DNA from: Gammaproteobacteria bacterium
GTDB taxonomy: Bacteria; Pseudomonadota; Gammaproteobacteria; CBDBBL01
Length of the DNA stretch: 64,000 nt
Direction of reading: 5' to 3'
NCBI GenBank assembly: GCA_965203125.1
Contig: CBDBBL010000001.1
Coordinates: forward strand, 40,971 to 104,970
Shown here: positions 1 to 20,909 of the stretch, one piece after another
Layout: the number at the start of each line of letters is the position of its first letter
How positions within the stretch are numbered: position 1 is the stretch's first letter
Program-made: the position numbers and the translations under genes
The notes under the pieces: model-generated
Database searches by the model: none
The model's input: the letters and a program-made list of their open reading frames with translations, nothing else
What the model was told of the DNA's origin: nothing

Positions 1-1387
1 CGATGAGACGGTGCTGGTCAATTCTTTCCAACAACCCCGTAAAAGTTTCACTGACTAGAGCAATCTGTTGATGCTTTAACGCCAATCTATTCATCACCCA
101 CAGCCGATAAAAGTCACCTTGTACACGTGATAAACCTTCATCGTCAAATGATACTTTTTGTAACCAAGTAACTTGTTCCTGTAATGTTGTGTATTCTTGT
201 TCAACACGCCTCACCCAATGATCCACAAACGTCATCCCATCCCTTTGCTTCATCAACACGTCATCACTACGCTCACTCAATGGTGACTCACGGTGCTGTT
301 GCGTCAACTGTAATTGCTGCACCCACAACGATGTACCTTCATCAAAAAAAGGATCACCATTATTAAATTTCAACTGCATTAACTTAGGAAATCGGGTCAA
401 CAAAGCCAACAGTTGTGCTATCAGAAACTGCGCCACATCAACTTGCTGCAGTGCAGTTAAGCTTTTCACCAGCTCATAGGTTAATCGGAAATAATAAGCT
501 CCACCTGGCAATGAGAAACACTGCTCAGCATGCTGAATCATCTCATGATGATTTGTATGCTCACATAAATAATTAAAGCGCGTCAACTGCAGTGATTCCA
601 ATGTAGCCAGTGCCGTAACCCCTGACTCATCATGTGGTGGCAACCCACTTAAACGTAGCCAAAATAATCTGCTCAATACCAATGCTTGCATATAGTCGTT
701 CTGCTGCAAATAATATCGCGCCAATTGACGCTGCTGATGGTATGCTTTATGTTCATCAAGCATCGATACATCAGCTGTTAGAACCTGTGTTACTTCCTGC
801 TCATCATCAGCTTGATCATCATTATGCTTCTCTTGGAGCTCTTCTTTAACAGCAACATCCGTCACAACCGAAGCCTGCTGATCTAATGTTGCCATCCAAT
901 CGTTTAAAATATAAATCTGCTTTTGAGATTGAGGAAAACACACCTTCAACTGCTGATTAAGGTCTGTTATATGCAGCTGAATGGTGTCACGCTCTTGCTG
1001 TGTAACTACAGTAGGTTGCCGCCGCAAGAAATCAAGTAATCGTGACTGATTCACCCACATAATTGCATTATCACGTGCAACAGTGCGCTGAGGATATATC
1101 TTTTTACCAAACTGACGCAACAAAGCTAACCAACATTGTAACCCTTCAAGTAATCCTTCAACACCAAATACGTAAGTCAATGCAAGTAACAAATACCCTG
1201 CAACGCGCAAATCTTTTGTCTTCAATTCTAACAACTGACAACACAAGCGAACGATACGATCATAATCAGCACCTGTCATCTGATCCAGTTGATCTTTCAC
1301 CCATAGGAAATCGTCATCATACCTCGGATCATCACCTACCTGATTATCTAATGATTGATTGATTTTTTCTAAATCTAATAGTGCCAT
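1..1387 (-). CDS. TssA/ImpA-family protein (type VI secretion), N-terminal part; truncated by the window edge
   Basis: Translating the reverse complement from the ATG at 1387 gives MALLDLEKINQSLDNQVGDDPRYDDDFLWVKDQL... with no stop before position 1. The GxDPRYDxDF motif is characteristic of the ImpA_N domain. It is absent from the ORF track because it has no in-window stop. Confidence 0.55.
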   Translation of the reverse strand, partial: MALLDLEKINQSLDNQVGDDPRYDDDFLWVKDQLDQMTGADYDRIVRLCCQLLELKTKDLRVAGYLLLALTYVFGVEGLLEGLQCWLALLRQFGKKIYPQRTVARDNAIMWVNQSRLLDFLRRQPTVVTQQERDTIQLHITDLNQQLKVCFPQSQKQIYILNDWMATLDQQASVVTDVAVKEELQEKHNDDQADDEQEVTQVLTADVSMLDEHKAYHQQRQLARYYLQQNDYMQALVLSRLFWLRLSGLPPHDESGVTALATLESLQLTRFNYLCEHTNHHEMIQHAEQCFSLPGGAYYFRLTYELVKSLTALQQVDVAQFLIAQLLALLTRFPKLMQLKFNNGDPFFDEGTSLWVQQLQLTQQHRESPLSERSDDVLMKQRDGMTFVDHWVRRVEQEYTTLQEQVTWLQKVSFDDEGLSRVQGDFYRLWVMNRLALKHQQIALVSETFTGLLERIDQHRLI

Positions 1388-3487: not shown

Positions 3488-3631
3488 TGAGACTCCAAAG
3501 GTTTAAAACTGTGTCAGTATATCATTGGGTGAGTGAATAATGCAGTAAAAGTTCGTAGGTGATGATGAGATAGAAAGAGCCAGCCAAAGCCAGCTCTAGG
3601 AGTGCAACAGTCCATGCTGTTGAGATAAATA

Positions 3632-4331
3632 TTAACTTACAAAATGAATATCTGACAATTTAATCCAGCAATTAGCGTTGTAGCTATTACCGTTACTGGT
3701 ACTGCCAGTAATTTGCGGATTGGTATCAGTAGTTGCATTATAAAATAGAACCGTATTACTAGTACCAATTGATCTAGCCCCTGCGGGAACATTCAGACCA
3801 CTGGTTCTGTTGGGAGCAAAGCTGATAGCAGAACTACTATTATTGGTAATTTGACCTGAGTTAAAAGCAATGGTAGAGATACCAGTAATGTTAGCGTGGT
3901 TGTATCCGAGCATCGAGCTGAGAAGCACCAGCAGAGTTATCATATACACAGGTCACATTAACTTGAGCATCCGCAATATTCTGAAATAAGGTGGCGATAG
4001 AGTGAGGGGTATTAACAGCCCCGCCAGCAACAGAACAGCTATTGCCACCAGTAGCACAGCTTATGGAGACCTCAAGAGAACGAGTGGCGCTGAGCTTAAC
4101 GTTACTATCTGCACTAGGAAGTAAGTTTAAGCCAAGGTTAGAATAGACAGTACCCACCTCATCATTAACATTAGTCTCATTGCCACTAACACAACTAGCA
4201 AAGAAAGAGGTTAACCCACCTGTGCCAGTATAAGAACGGGAATCTCTAAAGCAATTATGCAATGAAGCAGAGAAAGCAGTTGAAGCCGAAGCAATTGCCA
4301 AGCTGGCAAGTAGAATAGATTTATATTTCAT
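3632..4331 (-). CDS. small secreted pilin/fimbrial-like protein, split into two overlapping ORFs (3891..4331 and 3632..3949) by an apparent frameshift
   Basis: It has a signal peptide (MKYKSILLASLAIASASTAFSA). It is Ser/Thr/Asn/Gly-rich with paired Cys residues. It lies 22 nt downstream of the OMP gene, the same arrangement as 16958..19220. Confidence 0.4.
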
Positions 4332-4353
4332 GTTAAGTCTCTCCTAATAAAAG

Positions 4354-5127
4354 TTAAAGTTTGTAATTCAGACTAAGCAAGCCGATGGCATATCGCGCAC
4401 CACCACTACTAGTAACCGGTAAGTTTGCATTCATGATGGAAGGACTGCGACCGAATGTGCCAAAGTAAGATAGTTCAGCACTGGTCTTATGATTGAATTG
4501 ATAGCCCAATCCAAGCTGATAAGACCCTTGCAAACTGTTGTGAACAGGGTGTAGGTTAATTCGTTGCAAGAATGCACCAACGCCAGCAGAGGCATACCAG
4601 TTGTGCACTAGGTTAACTTTAGTGCTAAGCATGAGGTTCAAAGCTTCTTGAATTTCGACATCTTGAGGAGTTTCTCCATCTGCATAACTACGCTGGGTAT
4701 AGATGGAAACATAAGAACCAGTCATCAAGCCAAGTGAAGCGTTGAAGCTGGTACGTTTATATTGAGCAAACTCTAAACCCAGTACAATATTACCAACAGC
4801 ATTAGTGCTGGTTTTACCTGTCATGTTTTTACCACCGACCTCACCATAGCCAGCACCTAATGAAATATAAGGCTCAGCTTTCCATTGAAAATCAGGCGTA
4901 GGCAAATTCGCTACAAGCGTGGTATGTGGTGAAGAATGCCCAATGGCATGATCTGTGTTAGAAGAAAGGCGCGGTGTTGCAGCGTGTGCAACACCACTAA
5001 CGGAAGTTACCGCCATAGCTAATAAAAAAGAGGCTGACAAACCACCTGTCTTAGGTTGAGTGGCATGAATAGAAAAAGAACGCATAACTAAACTCCTTAG
5101 AGCATAACTACGCCTCGGTAGGCACAT
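4354..5127 (-). CDS. small outer-membrane beta-barrel protein; the true start is probably the internal Met at about 5085
   Basis: A signal peptide begins at MRSFSIHA...AHAA. The protein shows alternating beta-strand patterns. It is homologous to the OMP at 16958..17593 (EPYISLGAGYGEVGGKN versus KPYLDISTGFGTIGGKN). Confidence 0.5.
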   Translation of the reverse strand: MCLPRRSYALRSLVMRSFSIHATQPKTGGLSASFLLAMAVTSVSGVAHAATPRLSSNTDHAIGHSSPHTTLVANLPTPDFQWKAEPYISLGAGYGEVGGKNMTGKTSTNAVGNIVLGLEFAQYKRTSFNASLGLMTGSYVSIYTQRSYADGETPQDVEIQEALNLMLSTKVNLVHNWYASAGVGAFLQRINLHPVHNSLQGSYQLGLGYQFNHKTSAELSYFGTFGRSPSIMNANLPVTSSGGARYAIGLLSLNYKL

Positions 5128-5924
5128 AGACGAACCATAATCTATAACAATATAGAAGACGGCACGAAAGTGCTGGCATCAATTAATGCGACGCATCCAC
5201 GGGTGTCACCGAAAAGGTGGCACTCGGGCTTTGCCCGACCATTAACCCATGCGAGCTACGGGAGGAGACGCAGAAAGCAACGATTAAAAATCAGACAAAA
5301 ATAAAACGTGTCACACTGGTAAAAGTCCTAAGACAGCCAGCAGGTGATATCAGTCGTTTGTTGAGAGTACTGTGTATCCAGTACAGCGTTCTCTCGAACA
5401 CCAATATCGGGTGACAGTTTATGGAAGTTTTTGATTTGTGAACCTCGGGTGGTTCAGTTAAAATGCGATCATTCATTTAGCAACCTTTCTCGTTGTTATT
5501 TGATAGCGAGTCTGAGGTGTTTCAGCACCGAGGACTCGCGCCAATTTCATATCAGCGACGACCACTATAACAAAACAAAATAGCCGAAACAAATCTCTAT
5601 CTGTTTTGAAGTATGGTGTCGCCACCTACCATATTTTTTAAGCGATAACGCTGGTTACAATTAAGTGACGCAACCACCGCAAAGCAGGATCATCATCACT
5701 GTGTCGATGCGATAAGCCTCGAGGGTGTTGATGTGTGAGCTTTAGATTTTATAGATAGATTTAGATGGTGACCGAAAACTATTACTTTTGGCCATACTGG
5801 TTGTTTATCAATAACTCCTTGATTTATAATGATGGAGATCGAGTGATTTTAGAAATCTTGAGAGTCAAAACGACCCAATATTTGACATAGGTAAGATGAG
5901 GAAATTTAAAGCAGCGTAGGTATA

Positions 5925-6085
5925 TACCCATCACCATTCAAGAAACCGAGCTTTAACAAAATGAATTTTAGTGAAATTAGATTTAAAAAATCGAGTAATA
6001 GCAAGCCATTGCAAAAGTTTTTAAATGTCAATTTTGCAAAATCCATGAAGTTAAAGCTCGGTTTCTTGAATGGTGATGAGTATAT
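5925..6085. repeat. MITE-like element copy b (29-bp perfect terminal inverted repeat catcaccattcaagaaaccgagctttaac)
   Basis: The perfect inverted repeat spans 5927-5957 versus 6050-6083. The internal core gatttaaaaaa..gtaatagcaagccattgcaaaagttttt is shared with the copies at 13760 and 40380. Confidence 0.6.
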
Positions 6086-13681: not shown

Positions 13682-13714
13682 TCCTATGTCGTCATAATCA
13701 ATAGACCCAAACCA

Positions 13715-13865
13715 CTTGAAGACGCCGAAGCTTCAACAAGATAATTTTAAGCAGTATTGGATTTAAAAAAACTAAGTAATAGCAAGCTATTGCACAGTTT
13801 TTTAAAAGCTAATAATGCCAAAATTATGCAATTAAAGTCCAGTATCTTCAAGTAGTTTGGGTATA
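13715..13865. repeat. MITE-like element copy c (imperfect TIRs cttgaagacgccgaagcttcaac / ...gtatcttcaag)
   Basis: Its core ggatttaaaaaaactaagtaatagcaagctattgcacagtttttt is about 85% identical to 5978-6025. Confidence 0.5.
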
Positions 13866-14269
13866 ACCTCAAGATTCTAGCAAACTTTCCCATATTGCCC
13901 CAGTAAATCATTCATGCCGCCGTCAGCCTTGTGAAAACACAAGCAAGACAGTCTTTAAATCAAACATCTCATCTCGTTTCCGAATACACGCTAGAAGAAT
14001 CCATTTCTACAGATTACTGCAATTCAGCATTACATCATTTAAAAGCAAGCACGCATCATCACCCATTCCCAAACCACACAGTTGAACAGGTGATGGTACA
14101 ACTGGTTACAAACCAGCCTTTATTGCAAGCACAAACGTAATACTCACTATCGTTTTCATTCTCCGATCATGAGATTTGACTGTTTTCTATTCTAGCTTAA
14201 TTGGCAGTTTTCATGCTCATTTTATACTGGAAACATGAGACCCCTTTCATGCTCATTTTATATTGGACA

Positions 14270-14860
14270 ACACTTTATCTTGACATTAGCACTGTTTTTG
14301 GCACGATTGGCGGTAAGAATACGTATTTGAGCACTCAAAGCACCTCATTTCAACAAATTGCATTTGGAGCCGATTTCTATTCTGTGAAAAACTTCAAACT
14401 AGCTGCTGATGTGTTATATTTGACTGGGACAAATAACGTGGGGGTTAAAAAAACTGGTATTAGCGCTCTGGGTGAATTTGTCAATGCTGGTGGTGCGGTT
14501 GGTAACGTTGGAAGCTTAAAATGGCTATCAAATCCATCCATCCATTCAGAGCTGAAGAATTTATGTTTGACTCTATCTAAGAAGAAGACTACGATTTGCA
14601 GAGTTACAAAAAGATTTACCTTTCTAGGTTACTCATTATCTGAAAATGAAGGTCTGAGATTATCTAGAGAAACGCTAAGACCGCATAGAAATAAACTAAA
14701 GCGGCTTTATGAGCAAAAAAGATCTAACGATCTTTTGCGTGTTTATGTTATGCATTTTTGGCGCTGGGTGAAAAGTGGTGTTGATGATATCATTGACACC
14801 AATTACTTAAACAATGTCATGCTTTTATATATTAACTCCTATTTCAAATTAGCTAAATAA
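14270..14860 (+). pseudogene. deletion remnant fusing an OMP 5' fragment to the 3' third of the reverse transcriptase gene (ORF 14201..14860)
   Basis: 14270-14512 matches 17075-17320 in the OMP. 14513-14860 matches 18323-18668 (the RT C-terminus, with an extra atcc). The junction lies at cggttgg/cgttgg microhomology. The OMP signal peptide and the RT catalytic domain are both absent. Confidence 0.7.
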
Positions 14861-14911
14861 CTTTTTTGGATTCGATTTAATTTCTCAGCATGACTCTATA
14901 CGAGACGACCT

Positions 14912-15466
14912 ATGACTAAACTTCTACTATTAGCCTTAACTCTCAACGCAATTGCACTATCTGTTTTTGCCACTCCCACTTGTAACATCTACCTTAAAGG
15001 TAACACCGCCACTGCTGCGTACTGGCAATGCCTAGCTAACGAAAATGGCTTAACGCCACAACAGGAACGTGCTATTACAGACAACTCTGCCAAGGTAGGC
15101 ATTACGGCCATCCAAGCAAGCCAAATCCAATCCAACCAAAATTTCACCTTCATGAACCTCAAATCTGTGATTACCCTTGCTACGGTTCGCACTGTTACCT
15201 TTATCATAAGCGACTCTTTAAGCGCGGCAGATAAAACTCAAGCCGTTGACGGCACAATTTCTGCTAACACACAGTACCTCTTCACATGCATCCCTAACGG
15301 CGTTACTGACCAAATCACTACTTCGAGCGGGAACCCTATCATGAATGTTTCGTTCGTTACCTCGCCCTTCTCCTTCACTTGGACTACTGACAGTTCCTCC
15401 GAACTAAACCTTATGACTAACTCCGGAACGCTCACTTGCTCCGCGAAACTGACAAGATATGGCTAA
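14912..15466 (+). CDS. small secreted pilin-like protein, a divergent paralogue of 18720..19220
   Basis: It has a signal peptide (MTKLLLLALTLNAIALSVFA). Its flank is conserved with 18669-18725. It shares the motif YLFTCIPNGVTD with the paralogue (YLLTCIPNGTTT), plus PFSFT and TC..LT. Confidence 0.5.
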   Translation: MTKLLLLALTLNAIALSVFATPTCNIYLKGNTATAAYWQCLANENGLTPQQERAITDNSAKVGITAIQASQIQSNQNFTFMNLKSVITLATVRTVTFIISDSLSAADKTQAVDGTISANTQYLFTCIPNGVTDQITTSSGNPIMNVSFVTSPFSFTWTTDSSSELNLMTNSGTLTCSAKLTRYG

Positions 15467-15494
15467 CACGGAAAAGTTTGATGAGATATGATAC

Positions 15495-16440
15495 TCTTTA
15501 GAAGAGATGAATATGATAGTGATTAGCTAAAGTGAAAGCATACAGTCAAGACCTGAGAGATCGTGTGATAAAGCAATACGAACAGGGAAATAGAAGCAAA
15601 GCAAAATTAGCACAGCTATTTCAATTGGGGACATCAACAGTAGATAGGTGGATCAAGAGATACAAATCGACAGGTGAATGCAGATCATTCCAAGGACTGG
15701 GTTGTGGACGTAAAACACGCTTTGATGATAAACAGGCTATCTTGTCTTATCTTAGTGAGAATGAAGATGCTAATGCTATTGAGATGCGGGATGATCTATT
15801 TCCAGGTTGCACTATGTCAACCTGGTATGACACTTTGGCTAGAATGGGAATAACCTATAAAAAAAAGAGCCAAAGTATAAGCAACGATCAGAAAAACAAC
15901 GAGCAAGCTTTCTGGATGAGCTGGGGAAAGCGCCCTTGAATAAGCGCATATATTTAGATGAAATGGGGATAGATGATAACATCGTTGTGCAGTATGGATG
16001 GGCACCTTTGGGAAAACGTAGTTATGCTGAACAGTCTGGCTGTAAAAAAGAGCGCCTGAGTGTTGTAGCAGCTTATCAATGGAATGATAAAAAATTACTC
16101 AGCCCTTTTGAATTTTCTGGTCGAATGGATAGCGCTTTATTTTCAGGGTGGTTTGAAAATGTATTATGCCCTGAATTACAGCAAGGTCAGGTGATTATTA
16201 TGGATAACGCAACTTTCCACAAAAGTTCTGAGCTACACGAAATTGCAGAGAAATATGGCTGTCGAATTTTATTTCTTCCAGACTATTCTCCAGACTTAAA
16301 CACCATAGAGAAGGTATGGGCTAATGTGAAAGGAAGATTCAGAAAGATCATTAAATTAGCTGACAATTTTCAAGATGCTATCACTCAAGCTTTCAATCAA
16401 ACTTTCCCGTGTTAGCTATAGTTCCTACAACATCACTAAA
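15495..16440 (+). mobile_element. IS630/Tc1-mariner family insertion sequence (orfA 15532..15939 HTH; orfB 15936..16415 DDE; split frame)
   Basis: OrfA has an HTH (TSTVDRWIKRYKSTGE). OrfB contains DEMG...IIMDNATFHKS...DYSPDLNTIEKVWANVK, which matches the IS630 DDE core. Confidence 0.7.
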
Positions 16441-16855
16441 ACGGCGGATTTAAACTAGTTACCGCAACTTTCAGTTTTTATTTTGTCGTTAAAATTCACG
16501 TGGGGTTCGAAAATACCAACTCTTCGGGGTCTATTTAATTCACCTTCAACCGAAACATATGATTCGTGACTTGCTTGATTACTAGGATTACCAAATGGGA
16601 ATTTACCGCAAATCAGAACTGTTACACAACGGTTGCTGCTCTGTGGATAAACTTACCTTTCCTGCTCCACTTTCTTTGACTGTAAACCTACCTTTGTCCA
16701 ATCGCACATCATCTTGCACGAACCAGTGTAAAATGCCACGGTATAATCGTCTTTTTATTCATACTCGATTGATGACGATTTAAATGCCCACAGTTCTTTG
16801 TGATGTTCCGAATATAACACAGCTATCGTCGTCAGTAGATGGGTGTTTTTAGGGG

Positions 16856-16886
16856 GTTACTCTCAAACCACCTGAACCTATACAAT
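16856..16886 (+). mobile_element. solo IS481-family right-end remnant (ctcaaaccacctgaacctataca)
   Basis: It is identical to the last 25 bp or so of the IS481-like copies at 20885-20909 and 27400-27425. Confidence 0.6.
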
Positions 16887-16957
16887 ACAACTGTTGTAAA
16901 AAGGACTAAGCTAAGATACAGTTCGTTGCTAGTAGAGAAGTAACGAAAGGAATTTGT

Positions 16958-17593
16958 GTGATGATGAATTTTAAATTAAAGACCTTACTGATATCTGCAT
17001 GTGTTTTAAGTGTCGCAGCATGTTATGCTGATTCTCTAACAGCAAATATTTGGACTAGCTCTAAAATAAAACCTTATCTTGACATTAGTACTGGTTTTGG
17101 CACGATTGGCGGTAAGAATACGTATTTGAGCACTCAAAACACCTCATTTCAACAAATTGCATTTGGAGCCGATTTCTATTCTGTGAAAAACTTCAAACTA
17201 GCTGCTGATGTGTTATATTTGACTGGGATAAATAACGTGGGGGTTAAAAAAACTGGTATTAGCGCTCCGGGTGAATTTGTCAACGCTGGTGGTGCGGTTG
17301 GTGTTGAGGGAGGCATAACAACTCCGTCATATGAACATTTTAACCTGAACATGAAGTTAGGAGTTATAGTGCAACGGTTATCACCAGGGAGTAGCGCGAC
17401 TGCTAACCCAAAGACCACTTTTCAACCAATTGCTCAAATTAACATTAATAGGTTCATTGCCGATAATACAAGCTTAGGATTTGGATACTTAATATCTTTT
17501 CCAAGCCATCATATCAGTGTAGATAGCCAAGACAATATAAAAGGATCATTGCGCATCAGCGCTGGGATGATAACATTAAATCACTACTTTTAA
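16958..17593 (+). CDS. small outer-membrane beta-barrel protein (C-terminal ...TLNHYF)
   Basis: A signal peptide plus amphipathic beta strands with a terminal aromatic residue. It is a paralogue of 4354..5127. Confidence 0.55.
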   Translation: MMMNFKLKTLLISACVLSVAACYADSLTANIWTSSKIKPYLDISTGFGTIGGKNTYLSTQNTSFQQIAFGADFYSVKNFKLAADVLYLTGINNVGVKKTGISAPGEFVNAGGAVGVEGGITTPSYEHFNLNMKLGVIVQRLSPGSSATANPKTTFQPIAQININRFIADNTSLGFGYLISFPSHHISVDSQDNIKGSLRISAGMITLNHYF

Positions 17594-17594
17594 T

Positions 17595-18668
17595 ATGATA
17601 TCTCAGAGTAAAGAGAGAAATATAATAAGTCAATTAGCATCTACCCAGAAGCTTCATGAGAGTTATTTGCTTTTAAGAAAAAAGAGGACAACAAAGAACA
17701 ACATAGCATCTCAACATGATGACTTTTGGGCGCTAAGCTTAGCGTGGGATACAATTAAAAAAGATACGAGGATATCCTTGCAAAATGGTGATTATCAAAT
17801 CTCACCATTGAAATTATACACTAAAGGCGAGCATTTGCTTTCGAAATGGGATAGCTTAGACTGGATAATTCTGAAATCTTTGTCCACACAATTAAAAGGA
17901 ATTCTTTTAGCCCCATTTGTATCTCACGCTAATGTGTATAGTATATCTGGAGACAATAAGCAAAGCGGCATCAAAAAATGTTTGCGAGCTGTTTCCAATA
18001 AACTAAATAACAAAGCAGCTAATTTTGTTTTCAAAACTGATATAAAAGATTTTTACCAAAGCATTGACCCGAAAATATTAATGAATAAATTAAAACTTCA
18101 TATTCAGGATACACGAGTTATTAACTTACTAGAACAATATACATCACGTATTGAAGATTTTAATGGAGAGTACCGCAATTGCACTGGGTTGCCAAAAGGA
18201 TGTCCATTGGCACCAGTGCTGGCAAATTTTTATTTGTTAAGTTTGGATAAGGCATGCAACACCCCAGGTATTTTTTATATACGATATATGGATGATTTTT
18301 TAATTATAACCGCAAAACGTTGGAAGCTTAAAATGGCTATCAAATCCATCCATTCAGAGCTGAAGAATTTATGTTTGACTCTATCTAAGAAGAAGACTAC
18401 GATTTGCAGAGTTACAAAAAGATTTACCTTTCTAGGTTACTCATTATCTGAAAATGAAGGTCTGAGATTATCTAGAGAAACGCTAAAACGGCATAGAAAT
18501 AAACTAAAGCGGCTTTATGAGCAAAAAAGATCTAACGATCTTTTGCGTGTTTATGTTATGCATTTTTGGCGCTGGGTGAAAAGTGGTGTTGATGATATCA
18601 TTGACACCAATTACTTAAACAATGTCATGCTTTTATATATTAACTCCTATTTCAAATTAGCTAAATAA
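17595..18668 (+). CDS. standalone reverse transcriptase (357 aa; RT motifs 1-7 plus a short thumb), class unassigned
   Basis: It has FKTDIKDFYQSID (motif 2), GLPKGCPLAPVLANFYL (motif 4), YIRYMDDFLIIT (the catalytic YxDD box, here YMDD) and FTFLGYSL (motif 7). It starts 1 nt after the OMP stop codon. Confidence 0.8.
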   Translation: MISQSKERNIISQLASTQKLHESYLLLRKKRTTKNNIASQHDDFWALSLAWDTIKKDTRISLQNGDYQISPLKLYTKGEHLLSKWDSLDWIILKSLSTQLKGILLAPFVSHANVYSISGDNKQSGIKKCLRAVSNKLNNKAANFVFKTDIKDFYQSIDPKILMNKLKLHIQDTRVINLLEQYTSRIEDFNGEYRNCTGLPKGCPLAPVLANFYLLSLDKACNTPGIFYIRYMDDFLIITAKRWKLKMAIKSIHSELKNLCLTLSKKKTTICRVTKRFTFLGYSLSENEGLRLSRETLKRHRNKLKRLYEQKRSNDLLRVYVMHFWRWVKSGVDDIIDTNYLNNVMLLYINSYFKLAK

Positions 18669-18719
18669 CTTTTTTGGATTCGAGCTAATGTCTCAGCATG
18701 ACCCTATACGAGACGAACT

Positions 18720-19220
18720 ATGACTAAGCATCACCTATTAGCCTTAACTTTTACTGTTTTGACTCAACCAACTCTTGGACATCCGTCTTACCGCAACCTA
18801 ACAAAAAGTAGCTCTGCTTGTGCACATTTCACACAAAGGGGTTCTGAAGAATTTCTACCGACATGCTCGAGCCGAGACCGCCACCTTAAGACAAGTTTGC
18901 GTTTAGCAAAGCACCATGTAGGTATCATAATTCCTATCCCGACTATTGCTAACGCAACTATTAACATTACTAGCAATTTGTATGCCACTGTACTGGATGG
19001 AACTCTGGAACACGACGCGAACTACCTCCTCACATGTATTCCGAATGGGACAACTACATCATTTAACGCTTCTGGTCACAGCCCCTACCTACTCATATCA
19101 CCTAACGTGACTGTTCCGTTCTCATTCACTCTTACTACTTTATCTGATGGGCGGTTTAGACTATCTGCCGCGGGTATGACAACGTGCACAGCACAACTCA
19201 CCTATGATTCTGAAGACTAG
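18720..19220 (+). CDS. small secreted pilin-like protein (paralogue of 14912..15466)
   Basis: Signal peptide MTKHHLLALTFTVLTQPTLG. It is Thr/Ser/Asn-rich, with the shared motif TCIPNG and a C-terminal Cys. Confidence 0.5.
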   Translation: MTKHHLLALTFTVLTQPTLGHPSYRNLTKSSSACAHFTQRGSEEFLPTCSSRDRHLKTSLRLAKHHVGIIIPIPTIANATINITSNLYATVLDGTLEHDANYLLTCIPNGTTTSFNASGHSPYLLISPNVTVPFSFTLTTLSDGRFRLSAAGMTTCTAQLTYDSED

Positions 19221-19756
19221 GCTTACGCGTAACAATTTAGTATCTCTTTACGTTTAACTAGTTCACTATTAACGCTAGATAGACTTAATTGAAATTGCAC
19301 TCATTACAACCAACTTTGCTGAGTTCCAACGCCGATTAAATCTGTTGGTTTTGACCGCCGAGCCTTGATTTCACGACGACATGGAACTTGAACTCATAAC
19401 GACCAACCCTGATCGGGGCAGCTAACCTCTGAACTCCTCTGCTCAACTACGTTGTGACCTGAACTCACAACTCCTCCATAGTTCTTTTTCTTGTCCTTGT
19501 GCAAGAAAACGCGCTTAACACCCTGTTGCGACTTTCTGCTTTAACGGTGTGGGTTACGGACTAGCTGTATGTGTTAGGCTCTGAGCACAGATATTACCAA
19601 GTGACTGTCCACAATGGTTTGCAGTTCCAAACTGTGTGAGCTAACTTGCTTTGCCTATGCTACTATTATTTCGGAAAGGTGTGTTGACGAGTCTTATTAC
19701 GTTGATCCACGCGGGCAAGAGATGAAGTCTAACCTGATATACACTTGGATTTTGTA

Positions 19757-20909
19757 AACTCCTTCTTGTATAGGTTCAGGCGTATAAGTTCAGATAGAAA
19801 TGAGACGAATTTGCAAAAATAAAAAAAGACCTCGAGAATTGAGTTGAAAATAAAGCAAAACACGAGGTCATTATGCGAATCAAAGGACTGCACAAGTCTA
19901 TTTATAAAATATATGGATATGGACGTAAACAAGAAGTTTTAATTGAATACCTAAAAAATATCAAGCGATAGTCAGTCAGTTGGAACTTTGAAAAACGCAG
20001 GAACCAATGAGAAAGAAATCCCTTCATTTGTAGGTTACTCAAGAGCTACATATTATCAATCTCGAAAAATATTTATCGATCAGAAAATGCGGTAAATTAC
20101 CACCATCACTGGCTAGGATTAAGCGAAACAGCCGAAATGGGGGGAGGCAGAAAGGCAGTTAGTGCTCTATGTTCGCAGAAAAAACAGCAACTATGGTAAG
20201 TTTAAAATAACCCATATATTGAAGCGAGGTCATCAGTGTCAGATGAGTGAAAGCACAGTAGGCAGGATATTGAAACACTTGCTAAAAAAAGGCTTGATCA
20301 CCACAACCCTATCAGCACAGCGGGCAAAAAAGAAACGTAATTTCAACAAAATGATGCTAAGCCTTGGCGATTCAAAAAGTGTGGGCAAATGAAGTTAGGC
20401 GAGCATGTTCAAATAGATCATATGACTGTACGCCACAATGGAGTAATGGTGAAGCATTTTCAGGCATGGGAACGTAAAAGCAAATATATTGGAGCACAGA
20501 TTTACACCAATGCTAGCAGTAAGTCTGCTAGAAAGTTTCTACTCGAACTGATAGAGCAAGCTCCGTTCGAGATCTTGTCGATACAGGTTGATGGAGGATC
20601 AGAGTTCATGGCTGAATTTGAGGATGCTTGTCGACAGCTGAATATACCGTTGTATGTTTTACCGCCAGCTAGCCCAAAGAAAAATGGAGGCGTAGAAAGA
20701 GGTAACCGCATTTTTAGAGAAGAGTTTTATGCCAAGCCTTCACTTCCAGATTCTCTGGGAGCAATTCGCAATGATCTTTAAAGTTGCTGTGGCTAAATAT
20801 ATTGATTACAGACCGCATTTTTCTCTTGCAGGCTTAACTCCTTTGCCTTACATTGGGAAACATAATTCCCGAGGTGATTGTTTGTCTCAAACCACCTGAA
20901 CCTATACAC
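19757..20909 (+). mobile_element. IS481-family insertion sequence, degenerate copy (transposase pseudogene 19873..20880 with several frameshifts)
   Basis: It is about 90% identical in DNA to the intact copy at 26297..27425. The terminal inverted repeats are TGTATAAGTTCAG...CTGAACCTATACA. The ORF is broken into 20162..20392 and 20389..20781. Confidence 0.75.

Follow-up and report, generated by a model that had tools for sequence, protein, structure and literature searches.

An outer-membrane barrel operon free of reverse transcriptase as a probable distant relative of a UG4 reverse transcriptase locus in a gammaproteobacterial genome

Reverse transcriptases (RTs) of the UG4 class are linked to neighbours with fimbrial domains in 66% of cases (Sharifi & Ye 2022, PMC8934634) and show no enrichment in defence islands (Mestre et al. 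2022, PMC9226505). Among RT classes outside introns, UG4 alone was reported to have near-identical copies within a single genome, and in Francisella novicida such copies have an identical 5' flank and unrelated 3' flanks (Simon & Zimmerly 2008, PMC2602772). Here we describe a two-gene cassette in a 64,000-nucleotide (nt) stretch of a gammaproteobacterial genome (contig CBDBBL010000001.1 of assembly GCA_965203125.1), hereafter the window, whose coordinates are used throughout. This cassette, A, lies on the minus strand at 3576..5127 and encodes a small beta-barrel outer-membrane protein (OMP), OMP_A, followed by a secreted protein, small_A. On the plus strand of the same window a UG4 RT gene stands between the genes for a second barrel-like protein, OMP_C, and a second secreted protein, small_C (cassette C), and a degraded copy of this OMP-RT-small arrangement forms cassette B. 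Our preferred reading, to which we assign a probability of roughly 0.55, is that cassette A is a bicistronic envelope operon related to the RT locus at the level of its OMP, with partner genes that are not demonstrably homologous, and that it is not an exact empty site for the RT.

OMP_A is encoded at 4354..5085 (minus strand), and its distant paralog OMP_C, a protein of 211 amino acids (aa) ending in ...NHYF, at 16958..17593 (plus strand). The original prediction, made from the DNA letters without database searches, had proposed that these two proteins are homologous, and the proposal was borne out. BLASTP aligns them with 31% identity over 68 aa (E 1e-7), and their Smith-Waterman score of 92 compares with 34.5 +/- 5.5 for 300 shuffles, none of which reached it (z 10.4). 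The local alignment spans both mature proteins, to ...LSLNYKL and ...ITLNHYF, and the shared blocks are essentially as they had been quoted (EPYISLGAGYGEVGGKN aligned with KPYLDISTGFGTIGGKN, and ...LMTG with ...YLTG). When 4,096 open reading frames (ORFs) from the window and 84 loci were searched with phmmer, OMP_A and OMP_C matched only each other.

Both proteins lie at the margins of known families. In Pfam, OMP_A has weak matches to barrel families only, namely OMP_b-brl (PF13505; E 0.0086, 16.7 bits, under the gathering threshold of 28.7), PagL and DUF2490, all of them sub-threshold. OMP_C has a weak, sub-threshold match to PorT, no Pfam match to OMP_b-brl, and no homolog outside the source genome in the protein search. 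Judged by these sequence comparisons, the two are closer to each other than to any family profile, and OMP_A is a genuine but ancient paralog of OMP_C. Their global identity in a MAFFT alignment is only 22%, a divergence far too old for cassette A to serve as an exact empty-site control; the suggestion that it provides an internal control for the RT locus thus does not hold in the exact sense. The OMP_C leader (16958..17030) contains two lipobox-like sequences, LISAC and VAAC, and this 'barrel' may be lipidated, which would be unusual for such proteins.

Cassette A itself is compact. The longest ORF for OMP_A (4354..5127, minus strand) would encode 257 aa; the database copy (P0026, 100% identical) starts at M15, position 5085, and comprises 243 aa. 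Both genes open with ordinary Sec signal peptides, which end in ...GVAHA/A in OMP_A and ...TAFS/A in small_A. They are separated by a spacer of 22 nt (4332..4353; CTTTTATTAGGAGAGACTTAAC) that includes a Shine-Dalgarno-like AGGAGAG, and there is no RT between them. The N-terminal part of small_A is a 146-aa ORF (3891..4331, equal to P0028), and the C-terminal part (3632..3907, ending in ...NANCWIKLSDIHFVS) belongs to a 105-aa ORF (3632..3949, equal to P0029) that overlaps the end of the 146-aa ORF in another frame. A terminator-like hairpin with a T-rich tail follows at 3576..3597, about 35 nt past the small_A stop, and no terminator-like site was seen after the premature stop at 3891.

The two ORFs are best described as a single gene of about 232 codons, running to 3632 and broken by a 1-nt frameshift at 3907..3909, where one extra base near 3908 (GATGCT-C-GGATAC) lies outside any homopolymer. 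We joined the 146-aa ORF to the downstream ORF across this base and searched 1.84 billion representative proteins with the fusion in a full HMMER scan, which returned three intact relatives together with the window's own two fragments. The relatives, P0030 (231 aa, 40% identical to small_A over query residues 4-220), P0031 (237 aa) and P0032 (216 aa), each span both ORFs, and the family alignment is smooth across the frameshift junction. A tblastn search with the fused protein recovers the halves at 4331..3909 and then 3907..3635. Fusing the ORFs raises the cysteine count from five to six, and the product is a secreted protein rich in Ser, Thr and Asn. Because intact homologs cover both ORFs and the fusion adds the sixth cysteine, small_A is one gene, broken in the assembly, and the assignment of 3632..3949 to its C-terminal part explains why the span given in the original prediction reached 3632. 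That prediction had placed a small secreted Cys-containing gene 22 nt downstream of the OMP gene; the place, the signal peptide and the cysteines stand, and the size does not, since the gene is longer and frameshifted.

A real mutation near 3908 is somewhat likelier than a sequencing error, because there is no homopolymer at the site. To judge from the reading frames, small_A is probably a pseudogene here, unless the frameshift is an assembly error. The interval 3576..5127 is a chromosomal bicistronic envelope operon, partly decayed and drawn from an orphan protein family, and taken alone it is ordinary. In a sequence search of the PDB, the best match of the small_A family was NttE/Lpg0189, a type II secretion substrate of Legionella pneumophila (6skw/6l6g). 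The match is non-significant (E 0.22-0.32) and leaves the cysteines unaligned, and we treat it as a lead and not as evidence.

Relatives of cassette A point to a second genome. Among 5.8 billion proteins OMP_A has a single homolog, P0027, with 69% identity, and a metagenome scan for OMP_A relatives found none. P0027 and the small_A homolog P0030 are each encoded on one NCBI contig, in both cases 54,450 nt long. They probably share one contig, and a pair of the OMP_A/small_A type is probably conserved in this sister genome. Searches with the RT and with OMP_C returned nothing from a contig such as this one, so the sister genome appears to have cassette A and not the RT cassette. The small partner diverges much faster than the barrel, with 40% identity between small_A and P0030 compared with 69% between OMP_A and P0027. 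At such a rate, undetectable similarity between small partners of different cassettes would be expected even if they were homologous.

The partner encoded downstream of the RT, small_C (18720..19220, plus strand), is a secreted protein of 166 aa with four cysteines, and it has a paralog in cassette B, small_B (14912..15466, plus strand; 184 aa), with which it shares 31-33% aa identity. The comparison of small_B with small_C, which we used as a positive control, gave E 1e-16 and z 18.7. For small_A against small_B and small_C, BLASTP gave E 0.28 and no match, and Smith-Waterman z values ranged from -0.8 to 1.1 with or without the C-terminal part of small_A. An hhalign comparison of the four-member small_A family with small_B plus small_C returned a probability of 0.2%, and hidden Markov model (HMM) scores between the two groups sit within shuffled-decoy distributions. 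AlphaFold2 models reached a confidence (pLDDT) of only 34 for small_C and small_B and 33 for fused small_A, too poor to compare folds. The 22-nt spacer of cassette A and the 51-nt spacer between the RT and small_C have only the leading CTTTT in common. The original prediction had described cassette A as the RT locus minus the RT; the OMP paralogy and the absence of the RT agree with this description, but the small proteins show no detectable homology, an outcome that the prediction itself had named as refuting.

The small protein of cassette A had also been called pilin-like, a label that finds no support here. Neither Pfam nor NCBIfam yields a fimbrial match for small_A, small_B or small_C, and their sequences contain no type IV prepilin leader, their leaders being of the ordinary Sec kind (AFS/A, TLG/H and VFA/T). 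Comparison by hhalign with the fimbrial subunits that flank Serratia UG4 RTs returned probabilities of 0.2-0.4%. Among the window ORFs scanned with Pfam, OMP_C, small_B and small_C included, none has a fimbrial, usher or chaperone match, and the 23 ORFs covered by the scan include no usher or chaperone; most of the window lies outside it.

We suggest that small_A would be a Sec-exported, disulfide-bonded partner encoded together with the barrel OMP_A and followed by a terminator-like hairpin. In the likeliest working model, the barrel in all three cassettes would anchor or assist a rapidly evolving, surface-exposed partner. The association with an RT is specific to the B/C lineage, where OMP plus RT forms a conserved unit placed before divergent partner genes.

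Several points weigh against this account. The role of the barrel as an anchor for its partner is pure inference, and the barrel fold is deduced from sub-threshold family matches. The A2 profile ranked the fused small_A and P0032 higher than about 96% of decoys. In addition, inspection by eye shows that the small_A family and small_B/small_C share a cysteine order and short motifs. A cysteine stands right after the leader, and a second one follows 15-20 residues on, then [LVI]x[GN][NE]; TC[VI] occurs in mid-protein and C[TS][AVL]x[LV][ST] near the C-terminus. This likeness is again a lead and not evidence. Taken with the A2 score, however, it leaves room for a true homology at the level of the whole cassette.

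The RT of cassette C (17595..18668, plus strand) has 357 aa and a YMDD motif that is invariant in its family alignment. It matches the PADLOC profile RT_UG4 over profile positions 3-305 of 307 (251 bits, E 3.2e-75), with UG17 as the next best profile at 129 bits, and it also matches Pfam RVT_1 (E 1.9e-25). Its relatives number 24 in 5.8 billion proteins, the closest being 41% identical. A genome scan for relatives found no locus above 34% identity and none from the source genome, and a metagenome scan found RTs at 33-38% identity with unrelated neighbours. On sequence grounds the protein adds a divergent new member to a known class, UG4, and its neighbourhood is new as well. A single nucleotide separates the OMP_C stop from the RT start (TAA T ATG). 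The RT gene has a GC content of 33%, compared with 38-46% for its neighbours, and a GC content at third codon positions (GC3) of 0.32, compared with 0.33-0.38, which is host-like. No repeats flank 17595..18668.

Two other identities for the RT were considered and rejected. A retron or group II intron is set aside because RT_UG4 far outscores the corresponding models; the OMP_C stop 1 nt before the RT leaves no non-coding space upstream for msr/msd or intron domains, and Rfam at gathering thresholds reported one tRNA only in the window and no structured RNA at the RT. A diversity-generating retroelement (DGR) is set aside because we found no template/variable direct repeats (TR/VR; seed 7) in 16400-19800, in 13700-15600, or in the Vibrio or Logan loci.

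Cassette B (14201..15466, plus strand) is a degraded OMP-RT-small copy with a truncated 5' end. Its OMP and RT remnant (14274..14860, plus strand) bears an internal deletion of about 1 kb that joins OMP codon ~116 to RT codon ~242. The remaining OMP codons, ~40-116 (14274..14503), are 97% identical to cassette C (7 mismatches in 230 nt), and the RT 3' end (14504..14860) is 99.4% identical (2 mismatches and a CCAT indel). The remnant is followed by the same 51-nt spacer as in cassette C, 90% identical, and then by small_B. When 14860..14960 is compared with 18668..18770, identity is about 100% at the RT 3' end and 90% across the spacer; it falls to about 80% over the first 30 nt of the small gene and to about 40% beyond them, so that DNA identity between B and C drops from ~100% to ~40% within about 60 nt of the small-gene start. 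To judge from these alignments, duplication or homogenisation acted on OMP plus RT as one block and not on the RT alone, and the break between the copies falls at the partner gene and not at the RT borders. Cassette B has lost RT sequence, and RT sequence can therefore go by deletion in the source genome.

Further observations concern the surroundings of cassette B. The drop in identity matches the pattern reported for UG4 in Francisella novicida (Simon & Zimmerly, PMC2602772). The (CCAT)3 versus (CCAT)2 indel lies just past the deletion junction, and a chimeric ORF of 219 aa is left open. An IS630-family transposase in two ORFs (15532..16415, plus strand; HTH_Tnp_IS630 and DDE_3) lies between cassettes B and C. 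The 5' breakpoint of cassette B (14212..14274) is marked by a 29-nt motif, TTCATGCTCATTTTATATTGGACAACACT, of which a second, partial copy lies 36 nt upstream. The motif recurs with 29 of 29 positions at the start (1..31) of a 1,270-nt metagenome contig (L085), 50 nt upstream of P0002, the closest RT homolog (41% identity). It probably represents one end of a repeated or mobile element; alternatively, it could be a conserved element upstream of the RT. A palindromic element resembling a miniature inverted-repeat transposable element (MITE) lies near cassette A at 5922..6085, with 81-nt arms that are 78% complementary, and a copy 73-76% similar to it (13729..13851) lies just upstream of cassette B.

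The alternative that survives best is the insertion scenario of the original prediction, in which an ancestral module of barrel and partner with a spacer of 20-50 nt was duplicated, a UG4 RT was inserted in one copy, and cassette A keeps the RT-free state. The OMPs are truly paralogous, the cassettes agree in gene order and spacing, and the sister genome appears to contain cassette A without the RT. In both cassettes the partner is secreted, contains cysteines and evolves fast, so a loss of similarity is to be expected, and the RT has a lower GC content than its neighbours. Moreover, UG4 RTs are embedded in chaperone-usher operons of Serratia, Klebsiella, Cedecea and one E. coli plasmid, and fimbrial operons of this type are also widespread without an RT, which implies that RTs have been gained by insertion elsewhere. 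Gain of an RT by pre-existing envelope operons is thus plausible in general, and cassette A may give a distant view of the RT-less state. At the present locus, however, the small proteins fail every homology test, there are no flanking repeats or other insertion scar, the OMP_C/RT junction is 1 nt long, and the GC3 of the RT is host-like. The near-identical OMP-plus-RT block beside divergent small genes fits poorly with an RT dropped into a pair of OMP and small gene, since B and C part at the start of the small gene and not at the RT borders. OMP_C has no homolog elsewhere and so may have come with the RT, and we found no OMP_C or small_C ortholog that would supply an empty site. The claim that the RT occupies the gap of a conserved cassette needs two homologies, of which one holds; the insertion is therefore unproven and the conserved two-gene module half shown. 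We consider this history possible but on the unlikely side.

It is also conceivable, though we think it doubtful, that the resemblance is a coincidence, in which two OMPs of one barrel subfamily each came to lie beside a secreted-protein gene, a common enough arrangement, with no shared history or function of the pairs. In its favour, the partners are unrelated by all tests, envelope genes commonly cluster, and none of the other RT-linked loci that we surveyed has a barrel like OMP_A or OMP_C. Against it, OMP_A and OMP_C match only one another in the data searched, P0027 aside. Both partners bear signal peptides, contain cysteines in a similar order, are rich in Ser, Thr and Asn, and evolve much faster than the barrel, a set of likenesses beyond easy chance.

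A more far-reaching proposal takes the B/C boundary as its starting point. A UG4 RT and its upstream barrel would be copied or homogenised between loci, before varied surface-protein genes; cassette A would be the RT-less ancestor that the RT colonised; and UG4 would be a retroelement for variable surface proteins that is neither a DGR nor a defence system. In this proposal, cDNA that the RT makes from its own transcript may do the copying, and the copied tract would stop about 30 nt inside the downstream gene. We regard it as speculative and rather improbable in its entirety.

Least probable is the loss of the RT from an ancestral OMP-RT-partner cassette to give cassette A, for although the cassette B deletion shows removal of RT sequence in the source genome and the region is rich in insertion sequence elements and pseudogenes, tblastn finds no RT remnant in or around the 22-nt spacer, both cassette A genes have clean ends and ribosome-binding sites, the RT-less pair is apparently kept in a second genome so that any loss would be old, and the rare and patchy occurrence of UG4 RTs, with only 24 relatives of this one among 5.8 billion proteins, favours gain over repeated loss. 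Gain of the RT, its loss, and movement of OMP plus RT as a unit are all compatible with the data.

The value of cassette A, which we continue to read as an envelope operon related to the RT locus through its OMP, lies in the context that it gives to the neighbouring UG4 RT, a member of a class without known function. The barrel on the RT side has an RT-less relative elsewhere in the genome, and each of the two barrels comes with a fast-evolving secreted protein as its partner. If sister contigs confirm the RT-less pair, they would offer a natural comparison, with and without the RT, of the effect of UG4 on adjacent surface-protein genes. More interesting than cassette A itself are the sharp boundary between OMP-RT and partner in cassettes B and C and the habit of UG4 RTs of abutting surface-protein genes.

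This habit is seen in diverse bacteria, in agreement with the published link of UG4 to genes for fimbriae and other surface proteins. UG4 RTs lie tail-to-tail with genes for PEP-CTERM proteins in Colwellia, Methylobacter, Oceanicoccus and Congregibacter. In Vibrio and on a Salmonella plasmid the neighbour is an invasin-type or inverse-autotransporter gene, and in the cyanobacterium Dapis (L005) it is a gene for a phage tail-collar protein. In eight loci (L004, L006, L008, L009, L012, L015, L016 and L095) the 3' end of the RT gene overlaps, tail-to-tail, that of a gene for a surface or secreted protein, the partners including PEP-CTERM proteins, an invasin or inverse autotransporter, and small secreted proteins that end in Cys. 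Unrelated small secreted Cys-rich proteins follow the UG4 RT in a Pef/Afr-type fimbrial operon on an E. coli plasmid (L096, 8027..8620, 197 aa) and in a metagenome-assembled genome of the Legionellaceae (L014, 1678..1974, 98 aa), and they echo the position of small_B and small_C. In Klebsiella and Cedecea (L019, L021 and L022) the UG4 RT ORF has 693-719 aa and lies directly downstream of a fimbrial usher gene; beyond the RT domain it continues for about 350 aa without annotation, through either a real fusion or read-through by the ORF caller. Such UG4 fusions have been suggested to be mis-called ORFs (Mestre et al., PMC9226505).

Within the window, a further region may also encode surface proteins. 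Two tandem paralogs at 20909..26196, of 823 and 761 aa, are 87% identical and have no Pfam match. Their N-terminal 450 aa and 5' regions are near-identical, and they differ more in their C-terminal arrays of a 58-aa repeat (INITGGSLSALNTSTG...). Both are likely to be repetitive surface proteins.

Set beside described systems, the small proteins resemble chaperone-usher subunits (PF00419) and type IV pilins in being small, secreted and beta-rich with pairs of cysteines, and by eye alone the end of small_C, CTAQLTYD, recalls a C-terminal strand of the ATLKVDYQ type; they differ in lacking the Pfam match, the hhalign similarity and the prepilin leader described above. The OMPs resemble small barrels of 8-10 strands (OMP_b-brl, PF13505; OmpX/OmpW/PagL-like) in their signal peptides, in a mature length of about 190-210 aa, and in a C-terminal strand rich in aromatic residues (OMP_C ends in F). 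However, OMP_A remains below the OMP_b-brl threshold and OMP_C does not match that family.

As in a DGR, the RT here adjoins a fast-diverging secreted protein, and UG4 RTs elsewhere abut the 3' ends of adhesin, PEP-CTERM and tail-collar genes. DGR-type RTs carry ...SQ... at the position where the window RT has ...PLAPVLAN..., and the best profile for the latter is UG4 and not DGR; in addition, no Avd gene was seen next to the window RT. From other UG4 systems the locus differs in its neighbours, an orphan small barrel OMP and an orphan secreted protein of 166-184 aa, and in the presence of a cassette, A, that is without the RT. It agrees with them in the full-length RT_UG4 match and in the placement of the RT among genes for secreted and surface proteins, and cassettes B and C, near-identical copies that agree on their 5' side and diverge on their 3' side, resemble the UG4 copies of Francisella novicida.

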